A stretch of DNA of 64,000 nt from Minisyncoccota bacterium (lineage in GTDB: Bacteria > Patescibacteriota > Minisyncoccia > Phycocordibacterales > Phycocordibacteraceae). Shown here one piece after another: positions 8,008 to 32,308 of this stretch. Made by a program: the position numbers and the translations under genes. The notes under the pieces are model-generated. The model saw nothing but the letters and a program-made list of their open reading frames with translations, was not told where the DNA came from and searched no databases. Numbering within the stretch: the first letter of the stretch is position 1; the number at the start of each line of letters is the position of its first letter. Where the stretch lies: the NCBI GenBank assembly GCA_035531495.1, contig DATKSU010000005.1, positions 41,984 through 105,983 on the forward strand, written 5' to 3'.

Positions 8008-8012
8008 AGATC

Positions 8013-9200: not shown

Positions 9201-9220
9201 ATGAGATGGTTAAAGGCGTA

Positions 9221-10783: not shown

Positions 10784-10845
10784 GGATGCGCGCACGTTAC
10801 CACATAAATTGGCGTGTGTAAACGCCTGTGGGGATAGCGCTCTGA

Positions 10846-14634: not shown

Positions 14635-15078
14635 ATGGGAAATGCGCTCGGGATTGGCGCGCACGGCCGCGCCGCGTATGATAGCCGCATGCAATCGTCC
14701 CTCGGCATCACGAAGAAGGTCCCCTACCCGTTCGCGGAAGCGATAGAGAAGGCGAAAACCGCGCTCGCAGAGGAAGGGTTCGGCGTCCTTACGGAAATCG
14801 ACGTCGCGGCGACGCTTAAGTCGAAGCTCGGCGTCGCGCGCGAGCCGTATGTCATCCTCGGTGCCTGCAACCCCGCGCTCGCGAACGAGGCCCTCCAGGC
14901 GGAAAATGAGGTCGGTCTCCTTCTCCCATGCAACGTCGTCGTGTACGAGAACGGCGGGGTCGTGTATGTCTCGGCCGTGAAGCCGAGCGCAATGCTCGGC
15001 GTCATCGAGAACGCGGCGCTCGCCTCGGTCGCACGCCGCGCCGAAGAGAAGCTCGCGTGCGCCGTCGAGAAGCTCTGA
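14635..15078 (+). CDS. DUF302 domain protein
   Basis: GFGVLTEIDVAATLKSKLGVAREPYVILGACNP matches the DUF302 core. True start may be the internal ATG at 14689 (MQSSLGI...). Confidence 0.8.
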   Translation: MGNALGIGAHGRAAYDSRMQSSLGITKKVPYPFAEAIEKAKTALAEEGFGVLTEIDVAATLKSKLGVAREPYVILGACNPALANEALQAENEVGLLLPCNVVVYENGGVVYVSAVKPSAMLGVIENAALASVARRAEEKLACAVEKL

Positions 15079-15084
15079 GCGGCG

Positions 15085-15714
15085 CTAGTCCGGCGTGACC
15101 GGCTCGAGACCTTCCTCTTCGAGCGCCTTCTTCACGCCAGCGCGCGCCTCCATCCGCTTCATAAGGGCGGCGATGTTCGGATAGTCTGCGAGCGCGATGC
15201 CGGCGCGCGGCGACCAGCGCATGATGGTATAGCAGTACGCGTCCGCGATGCTGAAGTCGCGGCCGAGAAGGTAGTCCTTCCCCGCGAGCGACGCGTCCAC
15301 GTACGCGTAGCGCTTCTTCAGCCGGTCGATCGCGGCCGTCTTCTGGCCTTCCAGCAGATTCGGATTGAAGAGCGGTCCGAACCCCTTGTGCAGTTCCGTG
15401 CTGACGAACGTGATCCAGGAGAGCATCTCGTAATACGCTTTTGCGCCGCGCTCGGGCATGAGCTTCTTCCCGGGAGCCTGGTCCGCGAGGTATTGGATAA
15501 TCGCCGGACCCTCGATGAGCACGTCGCCGTCGTCGAGCCGGCAGGCGGGCACATAGCCGCCGCGCGGGTTCACCTCATAAAAATCCTCACCGTCCTCGGT
15601 CGTCCGGCCCTCGGCCGAGAAAGTGACTTTCGATAATTCGACGGGGAGTCCGCCTTCGCAGGCGACGATGTGCGGCGAGAGCGAGCACGCGCCAGGAGAG
15701 TAATAAAGTTTCAT
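15085..15714 (-). CDS. glutathione S-transferase
   Basis: MKLYYSPGACSLSPHIV N-terminal thioredoxin-like GST fold and an alpha-helical C-terminal domain. 209 aa. Confidence 0.85.
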   Translation of the reverse strand: MKLYYSPGACSLSPHIVACEGGLPVELSKVTFSAEGRTTEDGEDFYEVNPRGGYVPACRLDDGDVLIEGPAIIQYLADQAPGKKLMPERGAKAYYEMLSWITFVSTELHKGFGPLFNPNLLEGQKTAAIDRLKKRYAYVDASLAGKDYLLGRDFSIADAYCYTIMRWSPRAGIALADYPNIAALMKRMEARAGVKKALEEEGLEPVTPD

Positions 15715-16500: not shown

Positions 16501-16572
16501 TCCCGCCGGCGCGCGTAGTACGGAATGTGCTATAGTCCGCCCGGAATCGATATCACCCTTGGAGAAAACCGC

Positions 16573-17355
16573 ATGCAACCCTATCCGAAGTACGAGTCGA
16601 AAACGAAGATAACCGTGCCCGCTCTCGTCCTCGGCGGGACGGGCGGCCTCGGTCGCGAGATCGTGAGGGCCCTCGTCGCGAGCGGCGTGCGCAAGCTCGC
16701 CTTCACGTACGGACGTAACGAGGCCATGGCGAAGAAACTCGCGGCGGAACTCCGCCGGAAGAGGATCCGCGTGTACTGCGCCCATGCTGACCCGCTCGAT
16801 GAGAAAGGATTCAAACGGTTCCTCGAAGAGGCGGCGGCCGCGATCGGCGGAGAATTCGGCGTCGCGGTAAATACTGTCGGCACGTCGCCGGTCGGCCCGC
16901 TCCGTACCCAAACCATCGCGAAGTGGCGGGAGGTCTATGACGTGAATGTCATCGGTTGCTTCGCTATGGCTCGTGCCATCGCGGAAAGGATGCGGAAGAA
17001 GTCCACCAAGGGCTCCATCGTCCTCATCACCTCGAATGCGGGCACGATCGCTCACTCTGGAACGGGAAATTCCGCTCACTATGATTCTTCCAAAGCCGCG
17101 CAGGCGCAGGTGATGAGAATTTTGGCAGAATATTACGCGCCGGATATCCGCATCAATAGCATCGCGCCAGGATGGATCGAGACGGAGATGAACGCGAATC
17201 TCCCTAAAGCGGACCGGCAGCGGGAAATACGGAAGACCTGGACGAAGCGGTTCGGCGAGCCGGAAGAGATTGCGAGCTGGGTCGCCTTCCTCTTGAGCCC
17301 GGCTGCATCATTCGCGTACGGGCAGAATTTCCACGTCGACGGCGGATACCGCTAG
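16573..17355 (+). CDS. SDR family oxidoreductase (FabG-like)
   Basis: GGTGGLG, NTVG and YDSSKAA (YxxxK). Start set at MQPYPKY; the track ORF begins 48 nt earlier. Confidence 0.85.
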
Positions 17356-19567: not shown

Positions 19568-21571
19568 TTACGTACTACCCAAATCAAGCCGTCGCAGGCT
19601 CATAGCGTTAACGACCACAATAACCGTTGAAGCGCTCATGAGAAGCGCGCCGATCTCGGGGCGGAGAAAGAAACCCCACGCTGCGAAGATGCCGGCGGCC
19701 GCAGGTATCGCGATAATGTTGTAGCCGAGCGCCCACCAGAGATTCTGGAGCATTTTGCGATACACCGCACGGGCGAGGATGATGAGCCGCACGATGTCGC
19801 CCGGGTTGCTGCGTGTGAGCACGACGTCACCCGCCTCGACTGCCACATCGGTGCCAGAACCAATGGCGATTCCGGCGTCCGCCTGGGTGAGTGCAGGCGC
19901 GTCATTGACCCCGTCGCCGACCATAAGAACGACATCTCCCTTCTTTTGAAGTTCCTTGATACGGGTGTACTTATCCTTCGGCAACACCTGGGCGAAGTAC
20001 GTATCAATATTGAGTTCACGCGCGACCGCAGCGGCAACCTGCTCGTAATCTCCCGTGAGCATCGCTACCTTGAGCCCGAGATCATGGAGCTTACGCACAG
20101 TCTCCTTTGATTCCGGCCTCACTTCGTCCGCAAGCGCGATAAGCCCGAGAACCCGCTTTGTATCCGCCACGAATATTGTGGTCTTGCCGTCTCGCGAGAA
20201 CCGCTCGAACATCGGCACACTCTCGTCAAGCATGACATGCTCCTCCTCCATGAGCGTTTTGTTACCGACTGCGTAGCGCATGCCGTCGATAACTGCACGA
20301 ATACCCTTGCCCGCAATGTTCTTGAAATCACCGACCGGCGCGAGCGATATCCCATTCTTTCCGGCGTAGGCGACGACGGATCCTCCGATAACGTGCGAGG
20401 AATGTCGTTCGAGTGATGCGGCGATCCGCAGCACTTCATCCTTCGAAACATCGCCGAATGATTCGACGCCGACGACACCGAAAGTCCCTTTAGTGAGCGT
20501 TCCCGTCTTGTCGAAAACAACGTAATTTGTCTTCCGTATCGTCTCGATCTTCGAGAAATTCTTGATGAAAACGCCGTTCTTCACTGAGAGCGACGTCGCG
20601 ATGGTCGTCACGGTCGGAATGGCGAGTCCGAGCGCGTGCGGGCACGCGATGACCAAGACCGTGATGGCGAGCGTGATCGCGAAGGCGAACGAGGAACCGA
20701 TGACAAGCGACCAGACGAGAAGCGTGAGTATGGCGACCCCGAGCGCAGTGAACGTGAGCACGGCTGAAGCAGTGTCGGCGATGCGCGCCTGGCGCGGCTT
20801 GGTCATTTGCGCCGAAGCGATGAGCGACTGGATCTGCCCGATGGTCGAGTGTTCGCCCACGCGCGAGAGCTTAACGGTGAGCGACCCGTCGAGCGCGATG
20901 GAACCGGCGATGACGTTCGCTCCTTCCGCTTTCTCAACGGGCTTTGACTCGCCAGAGACGAGCGATTCGTCCACGTTCGAGCGTCCACCGATGACAGCGC
21001 CATCTGCGGGAACTTTCTCCCCGGGCTTCACGAGTACCGTGTCGCCCTCCGCGAGCTCGGCGATGTCGACTTCGGTCTCGGCTCCGTTCACGAGCTTATG
21101 CGCCTGCTTTGGCAAGAGCTTGGCGACCTCCGCGAGCGCGTCGCCAGCCGCGGCGCCCGAACGCGCCTCGAGATAGTGACCGAGGAGGAGCACCCAGACC
21201 AAGGTGGAGATTTCGAGGTAGAACTGGACGCCGAGCGAGGGGACGAAGGTCGCTACGACCGAGAACGCGTATCCCGTGCCGACGGCGAGCGAGACGAGCG
21301 TCATCATGCCGAACGCTCGCGCCTTTATCTCGTGCCACGCGTGCTGGAAGAACACGAGCGCGAAGCCGAAGATAACGGTCGCGAGACCGAGCTGAATCCA
21401 TGGCCCTAATGAAAGCGCCGGGATGTGCAGGAACGCCGCAACGGGCGGGTTCGTGAGCGCGAGCGGGATGATGAGGATGGTGACAATCCAGAACCGGCGT
21501 AGGTAGCTTGCGGCCGAGCCGTGTCCCATGCCGTGACCGTCGTGCATATGCTGATGCTCGTGCTCAGTCAT
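19568..21571 (-). CDS. copB: copper-translocating P1B-type ATPase (CopB-like: His-rich N-terminus, CPH motif)
   Basis: MTEHEHQHMHDGHGMGHGS N-terminus, VIACPHALGLAIP (CPH), DKTGTLT, GDGVNDAP. 667 aa. Confidence 0.9.
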   Translation of the reverse strand: MTEHEHQHMHDGHGMGHGSAASYLRRFWIVTILIIPLALTNPPVAAFLHIPALSLGPWIQLGLATVIFGFALVFFQHAWHEIKARAFGMMTLVSLAVGTGYAFSVVATFVPSLGVQFYLEISTLVWVLLLGHYLEARSGAAAGDALAEVAKLLPKQAHKLVNGAETEVDIAELAEGDTVLVKPGEKVPADGAVIGGRSNVDESLVSGESKPVEKAEGANVIAGSIALDGSLTVKLSRVGEHSTIGQIQSLIASAQMTKPRQARIADTASAVLTFTALGVAILTLLVWSLVIGSSFAFAITLAITVLVIACPHALGLAIPTVTTIATSLSVKNGVFIKNFSKIETIRKTNYVVFDKTGTLTKGTFGVVGVESFGDVSKDEVLRIAASLERHSSHVIGGSVVAYAGKNGISLAPVGDFKNIAGKGIRAVIDGMRYAVGNKTLMEEEHVMLDESVPMFERFSRDGKTTIFVADTKRVLGLIALADEVRPESKETVRKLHDLGLKVAMLTGDYEQVAAAVARELNIDTYFAQVLPKDKYTRIKELQKKGDVVLMVGDGVNDAPALTQADAGIAIGSGTDVAVEAGDVVLTRSNPGDIVRLIILARAVYRKMLQNLWWALGYNIIAIPAAAGIFAAWGFFLRPEIGALLMSASTVIVVVNAMSLRRLDLGST

Positions 21572-21971
21572 AGCTCAGTTCGATGGTATCGCCGTCGTGC
21601 ATGACGTAGCTCCCATACGCGGTGCTTGTCGCCCCGTTCACGATCATCTGCATATTCGAGCCGAATGAAGACATATCCTTGCCCCAGACCTTGAAGAATT
21701 GCGCGAGTGTAAGATCACTCGCGTGCACGACGCCCGGGAACTCCATGTGGATGGTGCCGGTGTCGTCGTGCGTATGTATCGGCATTTCTGCCGCGCCAAG
21801 GCCGATGCCAGCCGGTATCGTCACGTTCTGACCTTTCACCGTGATGAAGAGGTGCGAATGCCAGTGGAGGCCGTGGGTAGCGACTATGGTCGGATCGGAT
21901 GCTTGAGAGACAACCGTCCAGCCGAGAAGGCCGACGATTACAACTCCGATGGCGACATATGCGTATTTCAT
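21564..21971 (-). CDS. secreted His-rich putative copper-binding protein
   Basis: Signal-anchored 135-aa protein with HGLHWHSH and HTHDDTGTIHMEF clusters. It overlaps the copB start by 8 nt and follows csoR. Confidence 0.45.
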   Translation of the reverse strand: MKYAYVAIGVVIVGLLGWTVVSQASDPTIVATHGLHWHSHLFITVKGQNVTIPAGIGLGAAEMPIHTHDDTGTIHMEFPGVVHASDLTLAQFFKVWGKDMSSFGSNMQMIVNGATSTAYGSYVMHDGDTIELSYD

Positions 21972-21975
21972 AGCG

Positions 21976-22245
21976 CTATTTCTTCTTTGACACTTTGTAT
22001 GCCGACAGGATCTCGCGGATGGCTTTCGTTTGGGAGCCGCTTTTCATCTGTTCGACCACACATGTCGAAAGGTGGTTCTCAAGCATCGCATCTTCCACCG
22101 CAGAAAGCGCGGAGCGCACAGCCGAGGTTTGCGTGATGACGTCGATGCAGTAGGCATCATTCTCGACCAGTTTTTGGAGTCCGCGCACCTGGCCCTCTAT
22201 GGTCTTCAATCTGCGCACTACCGTGCGCTTTACGGTTTGTTTCAT
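21976..22245 (-). CDS. csoR: CsoR/RcnR family metal-sensing transcriptional repressor
   Basis: 89 aa with the Cys-His-Cys metal ligand pattern (AYCIDV...H...STCVV). Confidence 0.85.
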   Translation of the reverse strand: MKQTVKRTVVRRLKTIEGQVRGLQKLVENDAYCIDVITQTSAVRSALSAVEDAMLENHLSTCVVEQMKSGSQTKAIREILSAYKVSKKK

Positions 22246-22254
22246 GGGCCTAGA

Positions 22255-22271
22255 ATACCCCTAGGGGGTAT
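22255..22271. promoter_or_regulatory. near-perfect GC-rich palindrome ATACCCC-TA-GGGGGTAT, putative CsoR operator
   Basis: Lies 10 nt upstream of the csoR start and resembles known CsoR operators (TACCC-N-GGGTA type). Confidence 0.55.
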
Positions 22272-22469
22272 TCGGGTCAATGGACATTATTAACACAATC
22301 CTTTTCGCATGAAAACAACGCTTCTCGGCCTCGCCATGTCACTGCGCGAACACGCGATACTTCTTGAAATAACGATATTCGTGCCAAGCGGGCCGGGAGC
22401 GGGATGACGGGAAGACCGAGGCAGACCGGCGCCGGCCGAGATTATCCACGCCTCACGAAGCAGTCTCGC

Positions 22470-23048
22470 TTACGACAGCAGCGCGGCGAGCGAGCGGGCA
22501 CTCCGTCCCGGCACGTACAACGCCCGGGCGATGGCGGGCGCGTCGACCGCGGCATAGTGTTTTTGCTCCCCGATCTGTTCGAAACCGAGCAATCGGTAAA
22601 AACGGTCGTGCTTCGGGTTGATGGCGATGCAGAGGTAATCGATTCCGCATTCATGCGCATGCGCGAGGACGGCAGAGAAGAGGGGCGAGGCGACAAAGGG
22701 CGATGCACGCTTGCCAGTCGCGTCGGCATAGCGATCATGATCGACCGCGAATTGCACCACTTCCGCAAGCTGCTTCCCTCCCGCGCGAACGGATGCGAGC
22801 TCGCGCGCGTAGAGCGTGCTCATCGGCAGCCCCTCCTCGCTGTCTCTCACGACCGAAAGCGTGCCATACAGGACGGCACCCGCGAAAAGGCCGAACGTGG
22901 TCGCGTGCGGGCCGTCGAGGTACCGCGTGATTGCATCGGTTCCGACGGCATACCCTTGGGCTGCGTACGCCTTAGCGACCACGGCTCGCACTATCAGGCG
23001 TTCTGATTCGTCACGTATGGCGCGCACTGCGTTCGTACCGCTGGTCAT
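22470..23048 (-). CDS. GNAT-fold N-acyl amino acid synthase-like acyltransferase (OlsB/FeeM-like)
   Basis: 192 aa, C-terminal DYLCIAINPKHDRFYRLLGFEQIGE. Overlaps the ACP gene by 4 nt. The family call is tentative. Confidence 0.45.
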   Translation of the reverse strand: MTSGTNAVRAIRDESERLIVRAVVAKAYAAQGYAVGTDAITRYLDGPHATTFGLFAGAVLYGTLSVVRDSEEGLPMSTLYARELASVRAGGKQLAEVVQFAVDHDRYADATGKRASPFVASPLFSAVLAHAHECGIDYLCIAINPKHDRFYRLLGFEQIGEQKHYAAVDAPAIARALYVPGRSARSLAALLS

Positions 23049-23302
23049 GCGTGCGCGCCCGCATCGGTCGGGCTCGTGCCGGACCGCTCCACGTACGCGA
23101 TGACGTCCCCGACAGTCTCGATATGCGCGATATCATCGTATCGCACGTGACGGTCGAACGCCGACTCGAGGCGGATGAGCAGTTCAAATAATGCGATGGA
23201 ATCCGCGGCCATGTCAGCGAGCTTGCCGTCATCGCGGATGGTTTCCGCCGGCACGCCGAGCGTATCACTCATGATGGCAATGACTCTTTCACGCGGCTGC
23301 AT
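23045..23302 (-). CDS. acyl carrier protein (dedicated)
   Basis: Phosphopantetheine-attachment motif LADMAADSIALFELL in an 85-aa acidic protein. Confidence 0.75.
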   Translation of the reverse strand: MQPRERVIAIMSDTLGVPAETIRDDGKLADMAADSIALFELLIRLESAFDRHVRYDDIAHIETVGDVIAYVERSGTSPTDAGAHA

Positions 23303-23921
23303 AGCGGGTCAGGTCGGTCGGTACCCATGATACGGAATTCTGGCGCAGTACGACGGCCACAGCGACCACGTCCTCGCGGACGCGCCACGTGCGGATAGAC
23401 GCCTCGCAACGAACTCCCTTGATGGCGATCCATCCGTCATCCGATGCCAACGCGTCTGCAGTGTCGATATGCCGCGGATGCGTGCGCAAGCCGACGCCGA
23501 GCGCTTTCAGGACGGCCTCCTTGATCGACCAGCAACGGGTATAGGCCGCCGGACGTCGTTCGCATAGCTCCTGCGCGATGAGCGCGCGTTCGGCAGGCGT
23601 GAGGAATGCATTCAGGACGAGCGGCGTGAACTCGCGCACGCGTTCGATATCGGCACCGAGGCGTACGCCGAGGCGCGTTTCGGCGATACCGAGCGCGAAT
23701 GGGAACGCATGGGAAATAGAGATGGCGATTGGGGCGGCCCTGCCAGGAACGTACGCGGATGGTTTGCCGAGCATGTCTTTCGCGATCACGATATCGCGTG
23801 TCGGGACCATCCCCAGAGACGGCTTCAGCGCTTCGCGTACCGCCGCCCGCGCTGCTGCTTCCCCCGCCTCATGCAAGGCCTGCGGACTGCCACCTGTGCA
23901 GCGTGTGAGCGCGGTCGTCAT
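23289..23921 (-). CDS. 4'-phosphopantetheinyl transferase (Sfp/AcpS superfamily)
   Basis: WSIKEAVLKALGVG matches the conserved PPTase motif (W[SC]xKEAxxKAxG). Confidence 0.85.
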   Translation of the reverse strand: MTTALTRCTGGSPQALHEAGEAAARAAVREALKPSLGMVPTRDIVIAKDMLGKPSAYVPGRAAPIAISISHAFPFALGIAETRLGVRLGADIERVREFTPLVLNAFLTPAERALIAQELCERRPAAYTRCWSIKEAVLKALGVGLRTHPRHIDTADALASDDGWIAIKGVRCEASIRTWRVREDVVAVAVVLRQNSVSWVPTDLTRYAAA

Positions 23922-24562
23922 ACCGTACCTGCCGTGAAGAACTGCCGCATCTTATCGAATTTCGTATCGCTGTCCCCGCGGATGACCTCGCTGCAATGCA
24001 GGCGGGCGTCTGTCACGGTTTCCGGCTTCAGGAACGACTGCGTGTCGAATCCCGACAGGCGGACGAAAATGGTCGGGTAATCACGCGCGAATAGCATCTG
24101 TGCGCCCTTCTTGAACTCGTCTACCGCCATCTCGCCGTTGACGATCCTCCCCTCAGGGAACAGCAAGACCGTGCGGTGACGGTCGAGGAGATCCCGCGTG
24201 TAGAGCAGCTTCTTCGCGCGTTCGATCGCCGTCGTGCCGATATCGTAAGCACCGAGCATCTTCAGCGCGCGCCCGAGCACGGGGCGGCGGGCATAGGCGG
24301 ACGACGTCGGATAGCGCATCGGTACGGTCGCGAACCAGTTCTGCTTACCGAGGTAATACGTGATGAGGAACGGGTCGAACAGGCTGCGGTGGTTGGCGAG
24401 CACCAAGGAGCCGCGCGGCACATGGAAACCTCTCGGGATATGCGCTTCCAAGCGGATGCGTCCGCTGAGCCACCAGTCGAACGGGCATGTCGCGATCTGG
24501 CTGACGAACAGCGCATTATCGAGAGCTGCGACGCCGAGCTGTCCTGCGAATCGGAATATCAT
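23918..24562 (-). CDS. PlsC-family lysophospholipid/lyso-aminolipid acyltransferase (OlsA-like)
   Basis: NHRSLFDP (HxxxxD) and FPEGR motifs. Confidence 0.8.
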   Translation of the reverse strand: MIFRFAGQLGVAALDNALFVSQIATCPFDWWLSGRIRLEAHIPRGFHVPRGSLVLANHRSLFDPFLITYYLGKQNWFATVPMRYPTSSAYARRPVLGRALKMLGAYDIGTTAIERAKKLLYTRDLLDRHRTVLLFPEGRIVNGEMAVDEFKKGAQMLFARDYPTIFVRLSGFDTQSFLKPETVTDARLHCSEVIRGDSDTKFDKMRQFFTAGTV

Positions 24563-25428
24563 ATGTGATGATCAAGGATGCGGGAAAAATACCAGCGCTT
24601 CGCCCGCTGGAAGAGGTGGCCGTTGTGCCGTTCGGTACGGCGCAGCTTCTGCACGTATGGGTCGAATTGCCGGCACACGGGAGCGCGCTCGTACGGAAGC
24701 CCGGTGAGTATCTTGTACACCTCCGTCGCGACGAGATTCGCGCACGCGAGCGTCGCGACTACGGATGACGGCGCTGTTTCCTTTTCGAAATCAATCGCGT
24801 CCGACTTGTAGTACGAGCGGTGAACGAGCGAGGGGGAGATGCCGATGGCGAAGCGCAGCAGCTGTTCGCGCCGCGTCAGGGAGTCATCGAGCGCGAAGTA
24901 GGAGTCGAAACTCATGCTGTTCGGAGCGAACGTGAGGAGAGAGGCGCCGAAACCGATGGGGGCGCAGGTCAGCACCGGGATGCCGCGTTCGCGCGCGGCA
25001 CGGAAGAGCAGTCGCCGCACCTCGATATTGAAGAAATCGATGCCGTCGAGCGCCACGTCCGCGCCTTCGAGGAAAGCGGCGACGGTCTCGCTCGAGATGG
25101 CAGGAAACACGCGAATCCGGACGTGCGGGTTGATATCGCGCACCATACGTTCGATGGTGCGCGATTTCTCTTCTCCGAGCGTCGCCATCGAGGCGCCGGC
25201 CTGGCGATTGAAATTCGCCATCTCGAACGCATCGGAATCGGCGATTGTGAAGGCGCCGACACCGAGTCGCGCGAGAGTCGTCGCATAAATGCCGCCTACC
25301 CCGCCGAGCCCGGCGATGGCGACGTGCGTCGTGCGCAAGACGTCCTGATGCGCGTCGGGAATGAGCCCCCGGTTACGCGCAAAAGCGTCGCGGTAAGAGA
25401 AATTCAGAGCGTCAGTCGCTTTCTCCAT
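24559..25428 (-). CDS. ThiF/MoeB/TcdA-family E1-like enzyme
   Basis: VAIAGLGGVGG dinucleotide loop, ...NFNRQ. 289 aa. Confidence 0.8.
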   Translation of the reverse strand: MEKATDALNFSYRDAFARNRGLIPDAHQDVLRTTHVAIAGLGGVGGIYATTLARLGVGAFTIADSDAFEMANFNRQAGASMATLGEEKSRTIERMVRDINPHVRIRVFPAISSETVAAFLEGADVALDGIDFFNIEVRRLLFRAARERGIPVLTCAPIGFGASLLTFAPNSMSFDSYFALDDSLTRREQLLRFAIGISPSLVHRSYYKSDAIDFEKETAPSSVVATLACANLVATEVYKILTGLPYERAPVCRQFDPYVQKLRRTERHNGHLFQRAKRWYFSRILDHHI

Positions 25429-25595
25429 GCGATAGCATAAGTATACCGTACGGCCACTCCGGGGCGGTCAAACGCTTGAGAGATCCTTGACGACGCCTGT
25501 CAATAGCGGTGATATACTTCCCCCATCATGCGGCTCGCCGATGTGCGGAATGTGCAGGACTTCATGCGGATGGCCGACGACTGCTACGTGCCTGA

Positions 25596-26354
25596 ATGAA
25601 CGCTATTTCCATCGCATTCGCTGTCTGTGTCGGTATCGTACTCGGCGCGGTCTTGTTCGAGACCTTGCGCATCACGTGGTACCTCTGCATCTCCCGGCTG
25701 ATGACCCTCTCTACGATGCGGTTCGAGCGTCTGGATGCGCCCGGAACTGAGCGGATATTGTTCGTCGGCGACAGCACCGGCTACGGCACGGGGACGAGCC
25801 ATGAGCGGTATTCGCTCGTCGGCCGACTAGGCGCGGATTTCCCAAGCGCGTATATCGAGAACTGCAGCAAGACCGGAAGAAAATTGAAAGGTGCGGAACG
25901 CCTGCTGCGCCGGAAAGCAGACGATCCGGCGCAGCGGGCGTTCGATCTGGCGATCATCATGGTCGGAGGGATGAACGTGCTTTATGGCACGCGGCTGTCC
26001 GCGGTGCGCAAGATGGTCGACCGCATGCTCGCGCATGCGAAACGGTGCAGCCGTACTGTCGTCCTCGTGAGTTCAAACGATCCTGGCGCCGCGCCGCTCT
26101 TCCGCCCCCCGCTGTCAGGCATATACCGGCGCCGCGCCGGAGCGTTCGCATCGGTCTATGCCGAGGCGGCGCATGATGCTGGCGTAATCCATGTGTCGCT
26201 CTTCCGAGAACATCCCGACGAGCTCGTCGAGAAGCATCTTTTCTCGGCTGACAAGACGCACCCTAACGATGCAGGGTATGCGGTCTGGTACAATCGGATA
26301 AAAGAAGCGATTCCCGATATTCATGCAGGCCACGATGGAACTGGTATCGAGTAG
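25596..26354 (+). CDS. membrane-anchored SGNH/GDSL hydrolase
   Basis: N-terminal TM helix, ILFVGDSTGYGTG block I, and C-terminal DKTHPNDAGY (DxxH). Confidence 0.75.
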   Translation: MNAISIAFAVCVGIVLGAVLFETLRITWYLCISRLMTLSTMRFERLDAPGTERILFVGDSTGYGTGTSHERYSLVGRLGADFPSAYIENCSKTGRKLKGAERLLRRKADDPAQRAFDLAIIMVGGMNVLYGTRLSAVRKMVDRMLAHAKRCSRTVVLVSSNDPGAAPLFRPPLSGIYRRRAGAFASVYAEAAHDAGVIHVSLFREHPDELVEKHLFSADKTHPNDAGYAVWYNRIKEAIPDIHAGHDGTGIE

Positions 26355-27243
26355 CGCAGTCCAGGCAGGGGAATTCATGACGCGCCTCTGGTCGCTCATC
26401 GCGGCCAACACCGCGACCAATATCGCGACTATCGTGATGGCCTTCCGCGCTGGCGGGACGGCAACGTATGGTGCGCTGGTTCCGCTCGCCATATTGTTCG
26501 GACAGCTCATCCTTATCGCCATCACGCTTAAGGTGCTGCAGATGATATGGTTCCTGTCGCACGAGATCCATTTCCGACGGCCGAAGGCCTATAGCGCGAT
26601 TCGCGCCGGAGGGAAGCGGATTCTCATTGTCGGCGACAGCACGGCGTACGGGACCGGTGCGGATCGCCCCGAAGACACGATTGCTGGGCGCCTCGGGTAC
26701 GATTTCCCGCACACGACCATCATCAACATGGCGGTTAACGGGTCGACCGTGCGCGATGCGGTAAACCAGTTGCGAAAGGCCGGCCCAGGGCCGTTTGACC
26801 TTATCATCATCTGCACAGGCGGCAATGACATCTTGCGCTTCATCCGTGTCGCATCGATAGCACGGGATCTCGTTCGTCTGGCAGACGAAGCCGTCAAACG
26901 AAGCAACCATCACGCCTTTATGCTGTTCTATGCCAACCTCGGCGGCGCGCCGATATTCCCCGGTCCCATCCGCACCCTCATGAGGCGGCGGACCCAGCGG
27001 GTGTATAGCGTATTTGAAAGCGTTTCCAGGCAGTTTGATGTCCCGCTCGTCGAGCTGTACACGCACGAACACGTCAACAAATTCGCAACAAACCCGTTCA
27101 TGGAAGATCCCGGGCGGTATTTCGCGAAAGATCGCATGCATCCGAACAGCGAGGGGTACCGGCTCTGGTACAACCGGATGTGGGCCGAAATGGTTGCGCG
27201 CAATATCGTCTTCCGCGAATCAGACCCAGCGCCTATCCGTTAG
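26323..27243 (+). CDS. membrane-anchored SGNH/GDSL hydrolase (paralog of the preceding gene)
   Basis: ILIVGDSTAYGTG, GGNDI, DRMHPNSEGY. The start may be the internal ATG near 26377. Confidence 0.75.
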   Translation: MQATMELVSSSAVQAGEFMTRLWSLIAANTATNIATIVMAFRAGGTATYGALVPLAILFGQLILIAITLKVLQMIWFLSHEIHFRRPKAYSAIRAGGKRILIVGDSTAYGTGADRPEDTIAGRLGYDFPHTTIINMAVNGSTVRDAVNQLRKAGPGPFDLIIICTGGNDILRFIRVASIARDLVRLADEAVKRSNHHAFMLFYANLGGAPIFPGPIRTLMRRRTQRVYSVFESVSRQFDVPLVELYTHEHVNKFATNPFMEDPGRYFAKDRMHPNSEGYRLWYNRMWAEMVARNIVFRESDPAPIR

Positions 27244-27398
27244 CACACGTCTCCGGAGGCGCCCCAGACACCTGGCTTGTGTTGGCTGGCCGCATGCGAT
27301 CGTCGGCATCACAAAGAAAGTCCCCCCGTTCGCTGAAACCCTCGTCCTCGCCACCCCCGAGACAGAAACGGGCGAGTGATTCTCAAACTGTGCAGTTA

Positions 27399-28070
27399 AT
27401 GCGCTACCATAGGCGTATGGGCGCACGCAACTCACGCCTCACTCTGCTCCTACAGCTCGCGGGCACGCTCGTGATACTACTGTGTGTACCTGGTACGCTT
27501 TTGCAGACGCTGCTCCTCTTTATCCTGTGGGCTGGCACCTTCTACCCGCTCTCCCGTGCAGACGCGGTACTCTTTCTTACCGCATGCCTCTTTTACACGG
27601 TAGCTGACATCGCCGTGGTCCAACGAGGAGTGTTCCGTTTCAGCCATGCGGACTTCTTCGGCTTGCCGTATTACGAACCGTTTATGTGGGGCTTCTATTT
27701 CCTTCACGCGAAGAGGATGCTCGGTGGCGCTCTCCCTCGCCGGCTGTTGCCCGGCATCGTGCTTACCGTGACTGTGGCGGCTACCGCGACTCTCGTCTCA
27801 GACACCTTCGTTTCTGCCGTACTCATCGGCATCGAACTCGGCGTTGCGCTTTTCCTATTCCATACGAAAACCGATTTCCGCTACATTCTGTATCTCGCAG
27901 CCCTCGGCGTCATCGTAGAGGCGCTCGGCACAGCCACCGGGCAATGGTCGTACGGTGTCCCGTATTACGTCCTGTGGTGGGTAGTCACGTGGTCGGCATC
28001 TGGCCTCATCCTCTACCGGACCGGCCTGCCGCTTGCAGCGGCCATCGCCACTCGTTTCCGCACTACTTGA
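27399..28070 (+). CDS. polytopic membrane protein, hypothetical
   Basis: About 6 hydrophobic helices. Start moved to MRYHRRMG; the upstream part of the track ORF is Arg/Ser/Pro-rich and non-coding-like. Confidence 0.5.
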   Translation: MRYHRRMGARNSRLTLLLQLAGTLVILLCVPGTLLQTLLLFILWAGTFYPLSRADAVLFLTACLFYTVADIAVVQRGVFRFSHADFFGLPYYEPFMWGFYFLHAKRMLGGALPRRLLPGIVLTVTVAATATLVSDTFVSAVLIGIELGVALFLFHTKTDFRYILYLAALGVIVEALGTATGQWSYGVPYYVLWWVVTWSASGLILYRTGLPLAAAIATRFRTT

Positions 28071-29694
28071 CTGCTTTGCCGTAGCGGCCGGGATTGAGGA
28101 TGCGGTTCGGATCGACGGCGTCTTTTATCTTTTCGGTAAGTTCAAAACATGGGCCCTCAGCATGGTCGTAGAGTTCGCGTATGGTATCTATATCAAGCCG
28201 GTCGGGGAATGTTCCGAGTTCCCTGGCGAATTGCAGCATGCGCTTAAACGCGCGGCGAGCTCGCTCGCATTCTTCGGCATCATCGCGATTGAATACGATA
28301 GGGATGTTCGATGCGAATGCCCGCTGCGAAATGGCGGTCAGCGTTATGAGTGGCTCAAGCTGCTCGGAGAGGAAGATGTCCGTGACGCCGCGCACGAACT
28401 CGCGCACGAGCGTTGCATCCACGGGGAGCACGGGGGTGTACCAGATGAGGCCGCTGCCGTCGCGGTCAGGATGTAGATGATGGGCGGGCATGGGATGCGG
28501 ATTCTTCAGGTAGGCGAGCGGCAGCGCCACCTCGCTCGGTATCCCTTCGAGCACGTCGAGCGCGTCCTGCATGCCTTCGAACGACTTCTTGAATCCGAAG
28601 TTCGGCATGAAGCGTAACACCTTCCCTACGAGCGCGGCGCGCGGCCTATTCATGAAGACCGAATGCAGCGCATACTTGAATTCACGATGAATCGAGCGTT
28701 TGACGCCGCGCTCGAGATCGCGCGGGCAGTAGATGCCAATCAGCACGACCCAGTCGGAGACGTGTCGGCGTTTCGAGAGTTCGAGCAAGTGCTTTTCTGG
28801 TATGACACCCTTGATGAGCCATTCATTCTTCGATTCAACCATCGAGAGCACTCGCCGCATATTCATGAGGTTCAGCCCGCCGATGAGTGAGCCGAGTCGC
28901 TCTTTCGTTTTTGCGATAGAACGCACCGCGTCTTCCATGTGCTGTTCATCGATGAATGCTACGAATTGGCTTATCCGTTCGGATTTCCGCACGAGCGCAA
29001 TCGTCGCCCGCGTGACAACGCCGATATTCCCCTGGGCGAACAGCCCGTCGAGATACGGGCCGACTTTCCATTTATAGACGGGGTCTGCTTTCACTCCCCC
29101 GAACGCGTGGAAAGCGGAACGGTACAATTCTCCGTTCGGGAGTACCGCCTCGAGACTCATCACTGCGCCGAAATGGTCGATGTCTGGCGTCACGCCGTAT
29201 CCTCGCTCAAGTGCATTCCCGATGATGCTGCAGGAGGGGCCGCCACCGGTCGTCGGCACCATGAATGGAAGGCTGTGCTCTTCGAAATAATCGAACAGAT
29301 CTTGCTGAGTGACGCCGGGCTCGAGAGTCACATACGCCAGCGCTTCATTGCACTCGATAACCCTTTTCATCCCCGACAGGTCGAGAATGACGCAGTTATC
29401 CGCCACAGGGAGCGAACTGCCGAACCCCCAATCATGTCCGGTCGAGAACGCGTGGAGTGGGATGCGATGCGTATTGGCGATGGCGACAATCTTCTGGACG
29501 TCCTCGGCGTTCTTCGGCCGTAGCGCTCCGGCGATGGAGCGTTTCGTACCGAGCGTATTAGCGTGGTACGCGGCAGTCGCTTCCTCCGCACTGAGTACTT
29601 CAAGCCCTGAGATCCCGCGCCATCCGACAAAGGCCTCTTCAAGCGGCATGGAGTAATTGTACCAAGCGCAAGCTGGCCCGAGCAGCTTGTACAC
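28063..29694 (-). CDS. FAD-linked oxidase (PCMH-type FAD-binding domain; VAO/D-lactate DH/alkyl-DHAP synthase superfamily)
   Basis: FAD_binding_4-like N-terminal domain (IPLHAFSTGHDWGFGSS...VILDLSGM..GVTQQDL), 543 aa. Confidence 0.8.
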   Translation of the reverse strand: MYKLLGPACAWYNYSMPLEEAFVGWRGISGLEVLSAEEATAAYHANTLGTKRSIAGALRPKNAEDVQKIVAIANTHRIPLHAFSTGHDWGFGSSLPVADNCVILDLSGMKRVIECNEALAYVTLEPGVTQQDLFDYFEEHSLPFMVPTTGGGPSCSIIGNALERGYGVTPDIDHFGAVMSLEAVLPNGELYRSAFHAFGGVKADPVYKWKVGPYLDGLFAQGNIGVVTRATIALVRKSERISQFVAFIDEQHMEDAVRSIAKTKERLGSLIGGLNLMNMRRVLSMVESKNEWLIKGVIPEKHLLELSKRRHVSDWVVLIGIYCPRDLERGVKRSIHREFKYALHSVFMNRPRAALVGKVLRFMPNFGFKKSFEGMQDALDVLEGIPSEVALPLAYLKNPHPMPAHHLHPDRDGSGLIWYTPVLPVDATLVREFVRGVTDIFLSEQLEPLITLTAISQRAFASNIPIVFNRDDAEECERARRAFKRMLQFARELGTFPDRLDIDTIRELYDHAEGPCFELTEKIKDAVDPNRILNPGRYGKAVK

Positions 29695-29745
29695 ACGGTT
29701 TTCAGGGAACTGTCAATCTATTACCATTCACAATTGACCATCGCT

Positions 29746-30387
29746 TCAGGGTTCCCGCCGGACGCCGTAACGGAGGATGACGAGGGTAGCGAGAGCGACT
29801 GCAAACGCTACGGCAGCGACGCGATACCAGAGAGGAAGGGCCCCCGTGTACGCGAAATAGAATCCGAACGGCGCGACGCCGATGGCGGTCGCGACGACGT
29901 AGGAACGCCACGGCATCGCGCTGAACAGCCCGAGCGCGTAGCTTAAGATGTCAACCGAGACGAGTATGCGCATGAGGACGACCATCCAGAAAAGATTCCG
30001 TTTCGGGATGCGGCTCTCGATTGCGCGAATGCGCTCAAGACCGATGAGCCGCGCGACGACCGGCTCGCCGAAACGGCGCGCTATAAGGAATGCGATTGCC
30101 GCGCCGAGCGTCCATCCGGCGATGCTCATGAGCGCCGTCGGCAGTGGTCCCCACGCGACCGCGCCGATGGGAATCAAGAGGGCGATGTCGAGCGGTATGA
30201 TGAATATGACAAAGACAGCCGTGAGGAGGATGTATGCAGCAACGCCGAGTATCCCGCCCTGCGTGACAAGGGTCGCGAGCGCCGCGTGATACCGCTCGGC
30301 CAGCACGGAAACCGCGATGAACGTGATCGCGAGCAAGAGAAGCGCGGCGATCTCCCCATGGAGCGTTCCTTTGGGAGGAATCTTCAT
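29746..30387 (-). CDS. DedA/TVP38 family membrane protein
   Basis: 213-aa polytopic protein with a DedA-like core (GPLPTALMSIAGWTLGAAIAFLIARRFG). Confidence 0.75.
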   Translation of the reverse strand: MKIPPKGTLHGEIAALLLLAITFIAVSVLAERYHAALATLVTQGGILGVAAYILLTAVFVIFIIPLDIALLIPIGAVAWGPLPTALMSIAGWTLGAAIAFLIARRFGEPVVARLIGLERIRAIESRIPKRNLFWMVVLMRILVSVDILSYALGLFSAMPWRSYVVATAIGVAPFGFYFAYTGALPLWYRVAAVAFAVALATLVILRYGVRREP

Positions 30388-30458
30388 GCGAATGAGTATA
30401 GCTTGAGCCTGATACCGCGAAAGGCGCCCTTTCGGGCGCCTTTCGCTACCGTGATGCC

Positions 30459-30520
30459 GAGCGGTACTGTACCGACTTTGACGAGGAACGGTACTGGTTC
30501 CCCCGAGCGGTACTGTACTG
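30459..30520. promoter_or_regulatory. three spaced copies of palindromic GGTAC-N-GTACC motif (gaRcGGTACTGTACc) upstream of dedA
   Basis: Copies at 30459-30473, 30487-30502 (degenerate) and 30505-30520, following a perfect hairpin aaaggcgccc-tttc-gggcgccttt at 30412-30440. Confidence 0.4.
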
Positions 30521-30696
30521 ATCCCAATGGGGGCCGGAAGCAGTTCCTGGCTTCACAACCGTGTTGCCCATGTCGGTCGTGCACCCCACCATATAAGGTA
30601 TCTAAGGGTCTTCCCAGCTCCCTTCTCTCTCCTTGGAATAGGCGCACCGGACTCATACGATCTTGAGATAGATTGGGCGTACTTTGGTGCTTTCGA

Positions 30697-30726
30697 GGTG
30701 CTTTAGGAGCGTGTCGGTCTTGAACC
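30697..30726. repeat. direct repeat copy A (gCTTTAGGAGCGTGTCGGTCTTGAAC), left boundary of AT-rich islet
   Basis: 26/27 identical to copy B at 32154-32183. Confidence 0.6.
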
Positions 30727-30753
30727 AAAATGAGACAAATGAGACACACCCCC

Positions 30754-31341
30754 TTAGAAAAAGCTCTCGGCCAAAACGTTGGAATCGAACTGAAGTGAAA
30801 GATCGCCTCGCGTCTTGCGGCCAGTCCAGTACTCACCCTCTAGGCGGCGATTCGGTCGCTTGATAATTTTTAGGATCGCCGCACCATCATGAATAGCACT
30901 CCTATCCCAAAGGGACGCCTTCGGACGATTCGTGTAGTTATAGGTCAGATACAGATCCTCGCCGTTAGCCGTTGCGTTTATGCTGGTGGTGGTACTGTAG
31001 CTAGTCGACTCTTTCGTCATGAGAGTGATATTTATGTCCGAGAAACTCTGACGAATCACCAGAATGACAGGGACCGGTGCGATCGATTGGCCAGTTTTCG
31101 GGTCGATCCAATCGCTCTTCAATTCGCCACGCCACGTTCCACGCAAGTCTGGAACCTTAATCGGCACACTGTTCCCTACTTGAGTATCGGAGGATGTGGT
31201 CGCGGTCACTGAGGTTGGCGACGATGTTGCAACAGCACTCGACGAATTCGACGATCCTGCGGACGCTACGAGTATGACCACCAGAAAGAATCCGCCAGCG
31301 ATCCAAAATATCTTACGTGAACTCCCGATCTTCGTTGTCAT
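30754..31341 (-). CDS. hypothetical N-terminally anchored protein with Ser/Thr-rich linker and beta-rich C-terminal domain
   Basis: MTTKIGSSRKIFWIAGGFFLVVILVASAG then S/T linker and a ~130-aa domain (RGTWRGEL...YWTGRKTRGDLSLQF). AT-rich codon usage unlike the core. Confidence 0.5.
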   Translation of the reverse strand: MTTKIGSSRKIFWIAGGFFLVVILVASAGSSNSSSAVATSSPTSVTATTSSDTQVGNSVPIKVPDLRGTWRGELKSDWIDPKTGQSIAPVPVILVIRQSFSDINITLMTKESTSYSTTTSINATANGEDLYLTYNYTNRPKASLWDRSAIHDGAAILKIIKRPNRRLEGEYWTGRKTRGDLSLQFDSNVLAESFF

Positions 31342-31632
31342 ACCGCGTCAGGGTTAGGGGTAAATCCTGATGGGCGGGTAGCACAAAACCCGCTACCAGG
31401 AAGGCCTTGCGGCCTCTATAGGAGTTTCCCCCTATAACGTAAGCCACGCCCTGATAACGGGTTTTCTGTGGCTTACGATTGTCGACCATGCCCGGGGACG
31501 AATCCCGCAGGTTTAGGCCATTTCTATTCGTGTGTCGAACTTGTACATAATAGCTCGTTTTCAGCTATCCTTGTAGACCCTAGCTTAGATCTAAGGTTTT
31601 GCGAAATAGGTTACCAACAGCAAGACTTTGCC

Positions 31633-32183: not shown

Positions 32184-32237
32184 GAATTTCGGCATTTTTG
32201 ATGCCGGGCGGTCTGATTAACAGGCCGCACTACCGTG

Positions 32238-32308
32238 TTGCGGGGGCGGGAATCGAACCCGCGTCTGGAGGTTATGAGCCTCCCGAGGTACCTCTCCTCT
32301 ACCCCGCT
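32238..32308 (-). tRNA. tRNA-Met (CAT), initiator-like
   Basis: Reverse complement AGCGGGGTAGAGGAGAGGTACCTCGGGAGGCTCATAACCTCCAGACGCGGGTTCGATTCCCGCCCCCGCAA. Anticodon loop is CTCATAA. It has a 1:72 mismatch (A.A) and an A11:U24 pair, which point to an initiator, but the G29 of the initiator GGG triplet is an A here. 4-nt variable loop. Confidence 0.75.

Follow-up and report, generated by a model that had tools for sequence, protein, structure and literature searches.

Which lipid would be made by a Patescibacterial operon that combines a GNAT-fold enzyme with an ACP, and is such an operon new? The locus in question lies in a 64,000-nucleotide stretch of DNA, hereafter the window. All seven open reading frames of the original prediction, which had described a lipoamino-acid biosynthesis island at 22470-27243, are present with the motifs quoted for them, and this gene set stands. 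The boundary drawn at 27243 does not, as the unit goes on to approximately 30387, thereby adding a membrane protein, a VAO/PCMH flavoprotein and a VTT/DedA protein. Judging from sequence, we consider it likely that the region 22470-30387 is a Patescibacterial (Candidatus Paceibacterota) ortholog of the fee-type cluster, the products of which would be lipids built on a fatty-acylated aromatic amino acid, most probably tyrosine, along with oxidised or cyclised derivatives. The region contains the following features:

[quoted passage not shown]
23045-23302, minus strand: dedicated ACP, 85 aa, FeeL-like by position (PP-binding, 41 bits)
23289-23921, minus strand: Sfp-type 4'-phosphopantetheinyl transferase (PPTase), 210 aa (Pfam ACPS, 58.8 bits)
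23918-24562, minus strand: PlsC-family acyltransferase, 214 aa (Pfam Acyltransferase, 48 bits; NHRSLFD (HX4D), FPEGR)
24559-25428, minus strand: ThiF-like adenylating enzyme, 289 aa, FeeI by position (Pfam ThiF, 136 bits)
25429-25595: divergent intergenic region, 167 nt, site of an NTR-MacB-ABC-MFP block in relatives
25596-26354, plus strand: membrane-anchored SGNH/GDSL hydrolase a, 252 aa (Lipase_GDSL_2, 65.6 bits; GDS, DKTH)
26323-27243, plus strand: membrane-anchored SGNH/GDSL hydrolase b, 306 aa (Lipase_GDSL_2, 75.7 bits; GDS, GGND, DRMH)
27399-28070, plus strand: polytopic membrane protein, ~223 aa, five hydrophobic segments
28063-29694, minus strand: VAO/PCMH (4-phenol-oxidising) flavoprotein, candidate FeeG/CndG-type oxidase (FAD_binding_4, 81.7 bits)
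29746-30387, minus strand: VTT/DedA-family membrane protein, 213 aa, six hydrophobic segments (VTT_dom, 59.5 bits)

[quoted passage not shown] A phmmer search aligned its residues 9-189 with FeeM of PDB 2G0B (E = 5e-61), the chain of which is identical in sequence to AAM97306.1 from 'uncultured bacterium CSLC2', and the two proteins share 56% identity. This identity and the PF21926 match, the latter answering the proposed NAS-profile check well above threshold (114 versus 27 bits), bear out the assignment: by its sequence, the protein is a genuine N-acyl amino acid synthase of the FeeM type. Alignment with FeeM also led us to prefer the 192-aa start to the 170-aa NCBI call. Tyrosine is the likely amino acid substrate, as suggested by the similarity to FeeM and by the phenol-oxidase family of the flavoprotein. 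A profile search of the synthase detected no match to Acetyltransf_5/OlsB at E≤0.01, which weakens the analogy drawn earlier with OlsB/OlsA.

The fee cluster, whose products are fatty-acylated tyrosine lipids, reportedly stems from the soil eDNA clone CSLC2, said to have been described by Brady, Chao and Clardy (JACS, 2002) and by Van Wagoner and Clardy (Structure, 2006). FeeI and FeeM are the Fee proteins that we compared directly: the ThiF of the clone (AAM97302.2) is 65% identical to the cluster ThiF, which is its nearest relative among the retrieved sequences. Given these 56% and 65% identities, the operon ThiF-PlsC-PPTase-ACP-NAS appears to be orthologous to a portion of the fee cluster, probably the stretch from feeI to feeM. 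The accessions AAM97302.2 and AAM97306.1 lie four apart, which would fit a five-gene order ThiF-x-x-ACP-NAS. Further likenesses are the dedicated ACP and a flavoprotein from the VAO/PCMH family, to which FeeG is assigned as well; the copy described here differs in residing in a Paceibacterota MAG.

The five minus-strand genes overlap successively by 4, 14, 4 and 4 nt and thus form a single operon, and their order recurs in at least eight further independent loci, thereby excluding chance. Contigs from Kaiserbacteria, the Patescibacteria group and metagenomes keep the order ThiF-PlsC-PPTase-ACP-NAS, and a Saccharibacteria locus clusters the same five genes in a rearranged order. One might argue that the ACP, PPTase and PlsC are the housekeeping acpP, acpS and plsC, which happen to lie beside unrelated GNAT and ThiF genes, as housekeeping genes come from these three families as well and the view is that of a 64-kb window. 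We find this highly improbable, because these genes overlap the NAS and ThiF genes at their start and stop codons and the gene set is retained across several Patescibacterial lineages. The proteins themselves point the same way. The ACP, with its phosphopantetheine-attachment serine in DSIALFEL, scored below all NCBIfam AcpP cutoffs (at best 58.8 versus 66), and in relatives it constantly lies between the PPTase and NAS genes or adjoins the PPTase gene. The PPTase is of Sfp size (210 aa), bears the WSIKEAVLKALG motif together with GADIE and WSIKEAVLKA, and has HetI, AcpT and AusB, not AcpS, as top NCBIfam models, HetI and AcpT being nearest. The ACP and PPTase thus appear dedicated to the conserved operon, as had been predicted. 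The PlsC homolog is only marginally linked to true PlsC (T. maritima PlsC 5KYM, profile E = 0.013).

Membership of the PlsC-family acyltransferase and the twin SGNH hydrolases in the set was likewise upheld, both being part of the conserved cluster. The catalytic motifs HX4D and FPEG of the acyltransferase are intact, with H58, D63 and F135-P136-E137 invariant among eight homologs, and a search for transmembrane segments was negative. PlsC accompanies the ACP and PPTase in every locus that has it, and among the loci scanned this trio is confined to Patescibacteria-type loci, one of which is taxonomically unclassified. Such a constant association, with an N-acyltransferase, an O-acyltransferase and an ACP sharing one operon, recalls the acyl-ACP-using OlsB/OlsA ornithine-lipid and GlsB/GlsA glycine-lipid pathways. 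NAS could then produce a lyso-aminolipid that PlsC O-acylates with a second acyl-ACP, yielding a phosphorus-free diacyl membrane lipid, with the ThiF and oxidase either unrelated or tailoring. However, the N-acyltransferase belongs to the FeeM family and not to the OlsB/Acetyltransf_5 family, and PlsC was found in none of the 77 NAS-ThiF loci outside Patescibacteria. OlsA-type O-acylation requires a 3-hydroxyacyl chain, for which fatty acid synthesis is the normal source, whereas bioRxiv 10.1101/465690 describes Patescibacteria as unable to synthesise membrane lipids. The Ols and Gls pathways also lack ThiF, oxidase and exporter genes, whereas conservation of the operon extends to ThiF, a phenol oxidase and exporters, arguing for a small secreted or tailored lipid. 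We therefore hold the diacyl-lipid route to be quite unlikely.

The E1-like ThiF enzyme had been placed outside the known pathways. This was mistaken on two counts: the eDNA clone that encodes FeeM also encodes a 65% identical ThiF, and NAS plus ThiF form the core of the characterised oxazolone pathways OxzAB, TyzABC and TrzAS (PMC10404671, PMC12856293, bioRxiv 10.1101/2020.06.11.147165). The cluster ThiF matched NCBIfam NF006077 with 330 bits (cutoff 266), the ThiF+NTR fusion model PRK14851 with 251 bits, and also PRK14852, the model of a NAS+ThiF+NTR fusion. Its nearest PDB entry is TcdA, which was reported to form an oxazolone (PMC12596934). Adenylation residues are invariant in the alignment (GLGGVGG, N72, N74, R75, Q76, K88, D128 and D131), and no position holds an invariant Cys. 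Among the best 80 loci kept from a genome scan with ThiF (42-49% identity), an NTR-type desaturase is fused or adjacent in 53 and a FeeM-like gene is present in at least 23; this pairing of ThiF with NTR is also how the acyl-oxazolone synthetases OxzAB, TyzABC and TrzAS are arranged. Family membership and gene context suggest that ThiF is an N-acyl-amino-acid cyclase of the OxzB/TyzB type, although its role in related clusters has been called 'enigmatic' (PMC12479983). The window holds a second such system at 6943-9200, a TrzS-like split ThiF and desaturase pair:

8013-9200: second ThiF, split TrzS/Rv1355c-type, paired with a nitroreductase-type desaturase

The two ThiF enzymes of the window had been taken to be unrelated; both are in fact of the oxazolone-synthetase type.

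Could ThiF instead supply the ACP? Patescibacteria are depicted in bioRxiv 10.1101/465690 as lacking membrane-lipid synthesis, so a dedicated ACP would need a loader. ThiF might adenylate scavenged free fatty acids for attack by the holo-ACP thiol, as an E1-style acyl-ACP synthetase that feeds NAS. ThiF enzymes activate carboxylates for many nucleophiles, thiols included (PMC12596934), and profile searches of the cluster for an AMP-ligase/AasS homolog found none. Nevertheless, we regard this as unlikely. The ThiF relatives at 42-49% identity in 77 non-Patescibacterial loci have no ACP or PPTase nearby; their partners, whether fused or neighbouring, are NTR desaturases and NAS genes, and single-chain NAS+ThiF+NTR fusions are known (PRK14852). 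Moreover, the cluster enzyme lacks a conserved Cys, and characterised members of the family cyclise N-acyl amino acids (PMC10404671, PMC12856293).

The distal genes also recur in relatives. Both hydrolases have an N-terminal hydrophobic anchor. Hydrolase a, with its hydrophobic segment at residues 3-21, shares 42-50% identity with the orthologs that occupy its position in the related loci L001, L003 and L005, versus ~30% with hydrolase b. The latter, with a hydrophobic segment at residues 51-69 and a weak TesA/lysophospholipase L1 match, is 48-58% identical to its orthologs in the same loci. The polytopic membrane protein matched nothing in Pfam and NCBIfam searches; its homologs (35-45% identity) adjoin the flavoprotein in L089 to L091, L093 and L094. 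The clusters of L087, L010 and L094 include VTT-domain genes as well. The flavoprotein has a maximal open reading frame of 543 aa, with a likely start at 29649 (528 aa), and is joined to the cluster in seven further loci (L087, L088, L013, L090, L091, L093 and L094). Its nearest structures are p-cresol methylhydroxylase, eugenol oxidase and vanillyl-alcohol oxidase (E from 1e-37 to 1e-53), compared to 1e-11 for D-lactate dehydrogenase, and its homologs are annotated as 4-cresol dehydrogenase. FeeG and CndG have been placed in the same 4-phenol-oxidising VAO/PCMH group (PMC11350588, PMC11959600). Since the top 120 matches to the flavoprotein, each with ≥40% identity, include no CSLC2-named protein, its orthology to FeeG is unproven and it stands as a candidate.

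The fullest relatives carry an NTR desaturase, a MacB exporter and a 529-aa protein, all three of which are lacking here. In L001, L003 and L005, the ThiF gene is separated from the GDSL pair by four genes, which encode an NTR-type desaturase, a MacB permease, an ABC ATPase and an adaptor; tblastn at the corresponding 25429-25595 interval found none of the four. Orthologous Patescibacterial clusters thus share the NTR-type flavin desaturase with OxzAB (Pseudoalteromonas rubra), TyzABC and TrzAS (Mycobacterium tuberculosis), with which tyrosine as the likely amino acid is also shared, whereas the cluster here has a VAO/PCMH oxidase instead and adds ACP, PPTase, PlsC and SGNH genes. FeeM-type synthases are reported to depend on ACP, unlike OxzA, TyzA and TrzA, which use acyl-CoA (PMC10404671, PMC12856293, PMC12596934). 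The stieleriacine, kyonggic acid and thalassotalic acid clusters resemble ours in their Planctomycete and Massilia-type ThiF (42-49% identical), which adjoins NAS and NTR genes, but have, within 10 kb, neither ACP, PPTase and PlsC genes nor an SGNH pair or a VAO oxidase; they yield N-acyl dehydrotyrosines, and an oxazolone was never observed (PMC12479983).

For the fee-type cluster, we propose the following pathway. The Sfp-type PPTase would convert the cluster ACP into its holo form, and an acyl chain would then be loaded on it, the PlsC-family enzyme being the best candidate ACP partner in view of their strict co-occurrence. With acyl-ACP as donor, the synthase would acylate L-tyrosine, or an amino acid like it, on the amino group, an activity that is reported for FeeM. 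From its family and gene context, ThiF is predicted to adenylate the carboxylate of the N-acyl amino acid, upon which the amide oxygen would close a 5(4H)-oxazolone ring, as reported for OxzB, TyzB and TrzS (PMC10404671, PMC12856293, PMC12596934). The flavoprotein may oxidise the 4-hydroxybenzyl group via a quinone methide to give a benzylidene oxazolone or dehydrotyrosine or, from the free acid, a decarboxylated enamide as for FeeG. Against an oxazolone stands that the fee clone is said to yield N-acyltyrosines, enamides and enol esters instead. Finally, the SGNH pair, the polytopic membrane protein and the VTT/DedA protein might, as a guess, act on the lipid at the membrane, by handling, hydrolysing or relocating it. 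This copy is without the nitroreductase-type desaturase that is the hallmark of Oxz/Tyz/Trz, an observation that counts against the pathway.

The cluster is therefore of a known kind, a relative of fee. Its interest lies in the roles of PlsC and the GDSL hydrolases and in the origin of the fee eDNA cluster itself, which the presence of a copy in an ultra-small Patescibacteria (CPR) bacterium suggests is likely to be Patescibacterial.

The locus lies between a CsoR and copper-ATPase unit on its left and a gene coding for a Cap15-domain protein on its right. All ORFs named in the original prediction exist, and the motifs that it quoted were found in their translations (DSIALFEL, WSIKEAVLKALG, NHRSLFD together with FPEGR, and GDS together with DxxH). 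Along the run of five minus-strand genes, the successive overlaps are 4, 14, 4 and 4 nt.

Genes of the locus, with the best profile match in bits where there is one
22470-23048, minus strand: NAS, N-acyl amino acid synthase, 192 aa (FeeM PF21926, 114 bits, cutoff 27)
23045-23302, minus strand: ACP, 85 aa (PP-binding, 41 bits)
23289-23921, minus strand: PPTase, 210 aa (ACPS, 59 bits)
23918-24562, minus strand: PlsC-family enzyme, 214 aa (Acyltransferase, 48 bits)
24559-25428, minus strand: ThiF, 289 aa (ThiF, 136 bits)
25596-26354, plus strand: SGNH hydrolase a, 252 aa (Lipase_GDSL_2, 66 bits)
26323-27243, plus strand: SGNH hydrolase b, 306 aa (Lipase_GDSL_2, 76 bits)
27399-28070: membrane protein
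28063-29649/29694: VAO/PCMH flavoprotein
29746-30387: VTT protein

Two database proteins assigned to a 'MAG TPA: Candidatus Paceibacterota bacterium', HUY62382 and HUY62386, match their counterparts in the window at 99 or 100% identity. Elsewhere the window codes for type IV pilins, GatA and LigA. Scanning 21500-31500 for promoters and terminators was uninformative, as counts did not exceed those of shuffled sequence. The metal unit on the left (19568-22245, minus strand) is composed of genes for a CsoR-type repressor (21976-22245) and a P-type ATPase (19568-21571) and of a 135-aa ORF without family match. On the right, a LOOT RNA (31401-31519, minus strand; Rfam RF03000, 77.5 bits, gathering score 46.4) lies directly upstream of the gene for the protein with the Cap15 cyclic-dinucleotide receptor domain (30754-31341, minus strand; PF18153, 79 bits). 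The GC content falls to 0.52 across this 2-kb stretch, and a tRNA-Met gene comes next (32237-32308).

The fee cluster, whose reported products are N-acyltyrosines, enamides and enol esters, and its synthase FeeM have been textbook functional metagenomics since 2002. NAS covers positions 4-154 of the 158 of the FeeM profile, and a phmmer search of the PDB returned a single match, FeeM itself (2G0B, E = 5e-61, residues 9-189). FeeM (AAM97306.1) and NAS share 56% identity, including the segment LAEVVQFA, which contains the proposed catalytic Glu of FeeM. Profile and full-length similarity thus identify NAS as a FeeM-type synthase, predicted to carry out acyl-ACP-dependent N-acylation. No match of NAS to the OlsB profile Acetyltransf_5 (PF13444) was found at E ≤ 0.01, the best profile being FeeM, followed by a sub-threshold Acetyltransf_10. 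The NCBI record of the MAG carries the synthase as a 170-aa 'hypothetical protein' while other sources call the 192-aa form; the longer start is the more likely one because the FeeM alignment begins at residue 9 of the 192-aa ORF. In two related contigs (L003, 17326-17913; L005, 18919-19509), a second, divergent FeeM-family gene adjoins a pseudouridine synthase gene some 7-9 kb away from the cluster; the window contains no second copy.

The original prediction had placed the E1-like enzyme outside the FeeM/FeeL pathway. This does not hold, as such an enzyme is encoded in the very cluster from which FeeM came: AAM97302.2 of clone CSLC2, a 'ThiF/MoeB/HesA family E1-like protein', is 65% identical to the ThiF of the window, and the E1-like enzyme is therefore not foreign to that pathway. 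Among all sequences retrieved, the closest relative of AAM97302.2 is the ThiF of the window and that of FeeM is a Kaiserbacteria protein (65%). The orthologs of FeeI (ThiF) and FeeM thus lie in one operon here, in the same relative order. AAM97302.2 and AAM97306.1 are four accessions apart, a spacing that would fit a five-gene run ThiF-x-x-ACP-NAS in CSLC2 like the five genes found here. The fee ORF assignments rest on names in databases, on the spacing of accessions and on secondary papers.

What might ThiF do? Against NCBIfam, it scored 330 bits with NF006077 (cutoff 266), 251 bits with PRK14851 and 209 bits with PRK14852. Since the nitroreductase-type (NTR) protein of the window aligns to the C-terminal parts of the latter two models and NAS to positions 87-195 of PRK14852, we read PRK14851 as a ThiF+NTR fusion and PRK14852 as a NAS+ThiF+NTR fusion. 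A scan by ThiF alignment, with one genome per species, confirmed 421 relatives, and the best 80 loci (42-49% identity), mostly from Proteobacteria and Planctomycetes, were kept. An NTR-type desaturase accompanies ThiF in 53 of these best 80 (fused in 9, adjacent in 44), and at least 23 have a FeeM-like gene nearby. The OxzAB, TyzABC and TrzAS systems have this architecture; in them, the ThiF part uses ATP to cyclise an N-acyl aromatic amino acid into an oxazolone, which an NTR-type flavoenzyme then desaturates (PMC10404671; PMC12856293; PMC12596934), and the stieleriacine, kyonggic acid and thalassotalic acid clusters contain the same NAS/ThiF/NTR trio (PMC12479983).

Alignment of 21 ThiF sequences revealed invariant GLGGVGG, N72, N74, R75, Q76, K88, D128 and D131 and no invariant Cys. 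Such a pattern, with adenylation residues fixed and no fixed Cys, would fit direct intramolecular ring closure and not an E1-type thioester, and D131 would be the counterpart of the cyclase Asp (D217 of TrzS). Of the solved structures, TcdA is the closest; this enzyme was reported to form an oxazolone ring on tRNA (PMC12596934). Like the oxazolone synthetases, the locus codes for a ThiF with intact ATP-binding and catalytic Asp residues and for a NAS in the same operon; unlike them, it has no NTR desaturase, their defining partner beside or fused to ThiF, within 22470-30387. A role of ThiF as the loader of the ACP is disfavoured, because its relatives occur without ACPs and ThiF is found fused with NAS and NTR. 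Judged from family and gene context, oxazolone cyclisation is the most likely role of ThiF.

The window's only NTR copy (6943-8007, minus strand; 196 bits, model positions 375-719) pairs with another ThiF (8013-9200, minus strand; NF005901, 326 bits, model positions 9-357), the two being the halves of an Rv1355c/TrzS-type protein encoded by separate genes. On one side of the pair (9221-10840) is the gene for a PaaK-like adenylate-forming enzyme of about 540 aa and on the other (5332-6930) that for a 7TM histidine kinase, the whole region (5332-10840) being on the minus strand, and no FeeM- or TrzA-like acyltransferase gene lies beside 6943-9200. The stretch 10846-13094, also on the minus strand, contains the gene for a 502-aa protein in which an RnfD/NqrB-like membrane part is joined to a FAD/NAD-binding reductase part; a gene for an ApbE flavin transferase lies immediately upstream on that strand.

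Contigs with orthologous clusters, designated by L numbers, combine a constant core with variable modules.

Arrangement of orthologous clusters in other contigs (adaptor, ABC and MacB, exporter genes; GDSL, SGNH hydrolase genes)
L001 (Kaiserbacteria), L003 (Patescibacteria group), L005: ThiF-PlsC-PPTase-ACP-NAS; divergent NTR-MacB-ABC-adaptor-GDSL-GDSL
L087: flavoprotein-ThiF-PlsC-PPTase-ACP-NAS, then VTT gene
L094, L093, L091: adaptor-ABC-MacB-NTR-flavoprotein-529-aa protein-membrane protein-VTT, divergent from the core; thirteen genes
L010 (Saccharibacteria): a VTT gene plus the two GDSL genes, with PlsC-PPTase-ACP-NAS-ThiF-adaptor-MacB-ABC running divergently; without oxidase
L013 (Moraniibacteriota): PlsC-PPTase-ACP-ThiF; flavoprotein gene convergent

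The window copy consists of the core, the GDSL pair, the membrane protein, the flavoprotein and the VTT protein. It contains no NTR enzyme, exporter or 529-aa protein, whereas NTR is present in L001, L003, L005 and L094; where relatives have four genes between ThiF and the first GDSL gene, the window has 167 nt. A metagenome scan with close PlsC sequences returned five loci. We ruled out that NTR and VAO oxidases are mutually exclusive, as both occur in L088, L091, L093 and L094. Neither Pfam nor NCBIfam returned anything for the membrane protein or for the relatives' 529-aa protein. The latter is conserved in fuller versions of the cluster, where its gene separates those of the VAO-type flavoprotein and the membrane protein (L094, 5621-7210; L089, 5152-6741; copies 46% identical). 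Metagenome contig L094 also carries a homing-endonuclease gene of the LAGLIDADG type (14735-15547), a few kb downstream of its fee-like cluster.

Among solved structures, the flavoprotein is nearest to p-cresol methylhydroxylase, eugenol oxidase, 4-allyl-syringol oxidase and vanillyl-alcohol oxidase, with E values of 1e-37 to 1e-53, compared to about 1e-11 or weaker for D-lactate dehydrogenase and glycolate oxidase, and its homologs are annotated as 4-cresol dehydrogenase. FeeG and CndG, which catalyze the oxidative decarboxylation of N-acylated tyrosine, have been placed in the 4-phenol-oxidising subgroup (PMC11350588; PMC11959600; PMC8762209), the one to which the flavoprotein belongs as well. 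By family membership, the flavoprotein is a candidate FeeG-type oxidase, FeeG being a VAO/PCMH oxidase that decarboxylates N-acyltyrosine; the likeness is at the level of the family, and no CSLC2 protein is among the best 120 matches of the flavoprotein. The strongest reason to expect tyrosine as the amino acid is that the cluster contains a phenol-specific oxidase. Acting on the free acid, the quinone-methide route would yield an enamide. If ThiF first tied up the carboxylate in an oxazolone, loss of CO2 from the quinone methide would be blocked and a benzylidene oxazolone would form.

It might be argued that ACP, AcpS and PlsC are simply housekeeping genes. Operon structure, scores and conservation speak against this reading, which we disfavour. 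The ACP falls below every AcpP cutoff (best score 58.8, cutoff 66), and the PPTase is not of the AcpS type: it is 210 aa long, compared to about 125 aa for single-domain AcpS, it best matches HetI and AcpT, and its AcpS score is 16.7 for a cutoff of 59.8. PlsC contains NHRSLFD and FPEGR, with H58, D63 and F135-P136-E137 invariant; it had no single-sequence match in the PDB and by profile reached E = 0.013 with 5KYM. A membrane aminolipid pathway of the OlsB/OlsA type would share such an O-acyltransferase with the HX4D motif, which is generic to the superfamily. It is disfavoured because the N-acyltransferase is not OlsB-type and PlsC is missing from all 77 ThiF loci outside Patescibacteria.

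ORFs resembling PlsC, ACP and PPTase occurred only in Patescibacteria-type loci (HMMs built from eight divergent copies, E < 0.01), and the same HMMs detected none in 77 other ThiF loci. The trio is always ordered PlsC-PPTase-ACP, even in L011, where NAS is displaced, and in L013, where no NAS was seen, and whichever oxidase is present, suggesting that PlsC is a partner of the ACP and not of a particular tailoring step. We ruled out PlsC as an enol-ester-forming enzyme tied to a FeeG-type oxidase, since it occurs in L001, L003, L005, L010 and L011 without that oxidase. PlsC could load the ACP by transacylation from scavenged lipid or perform a second acylation using acyl-ACP. A preprint (bioRxiv 10.1101/465690) describes Patescibacteria as lacking membrane-lipid synthesis and, on that description, a cluster with its own carrier protein makes sense. 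An SDR encoded at 16525-17355 was rejected as evidence of fatty acid synthesis, as it scores below all FabG cutoffs.

A bolder and rather improbable proposal is that PlsC-PPTase-ACP forms a self-contained acyl-ACP supply, in which PlsC would act as a reverse transacylase moving acyl groups from host-derived phospholipids or lysophospholipids to holo-ACP, with possible assistance from the membrane SGNH pair. Its phyletic fit is that the trio moves as a unit, follows the ACP and not the oxidase type, and is missing from all 77 NAS-ThiF loci of bacteria that make fatty acids themselves. Such a supply, if real, would amount to a novel mode of ACP charging and would tie in with the lysolipid-rich membranes reported for Patescibacteria.

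Both SGNH proteins are above the Lipase_GDSL_2 cutoff, have an N-terminal hydrophobic segment and retain intact catalytic blocks (VGDSTGYG and DKTH in the first; VGDSTAYG, GGND and DRMH in the second), with weak likeness to TesA/lysophospholipase L1. Each is closer to its positional orthologs (42-58% identity in L001, L003 and L005; 39-42% in L088) than to its neighbour (only about 30%), indicating that the duplication is old and that both copies have been kept.

By sequence, then, the locus is an ortholog of the fee cluster, predicted to work like it, with a core shared with the oxazolone synthetases. The central novelty claim of the original prediction falls with this result; the organismal context and the modules that the known parts leave unexplained, namely the trio confined to Patescibacteria-type loci and the two membrane SGNH hydrolases side by side, merit follow-up. 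Our literature search found no report of a Patescibacterial home of fee-type clusters, of a PlsC-PPTase-ACP trio restricted to Patescibacterial lineages or of modular oxidase/exporter swapping.

The database record of CSLC2 gives 'uncultured bacterium' alone, and Patescibacteria or unassigned metagenome contigs supply every one of the closest relatives of FeeM and of the ThiF next to it. The old fee cluster is now tied to recently solved oxazolone pathways, and its ThiF gene thereby gains a function that can be tested. Since the cluster recurs in MAGs of Kaiserbacteria, Saccharibacteria, Moranbacteria-type bacteria and Minisyncoccota, ultra-small, host-dependent bacteria with a minimal metabolism appear to spend 10 to 13 genes on an acyl-tyrosine lipid, a candidate mediator of host or competitor interaction.
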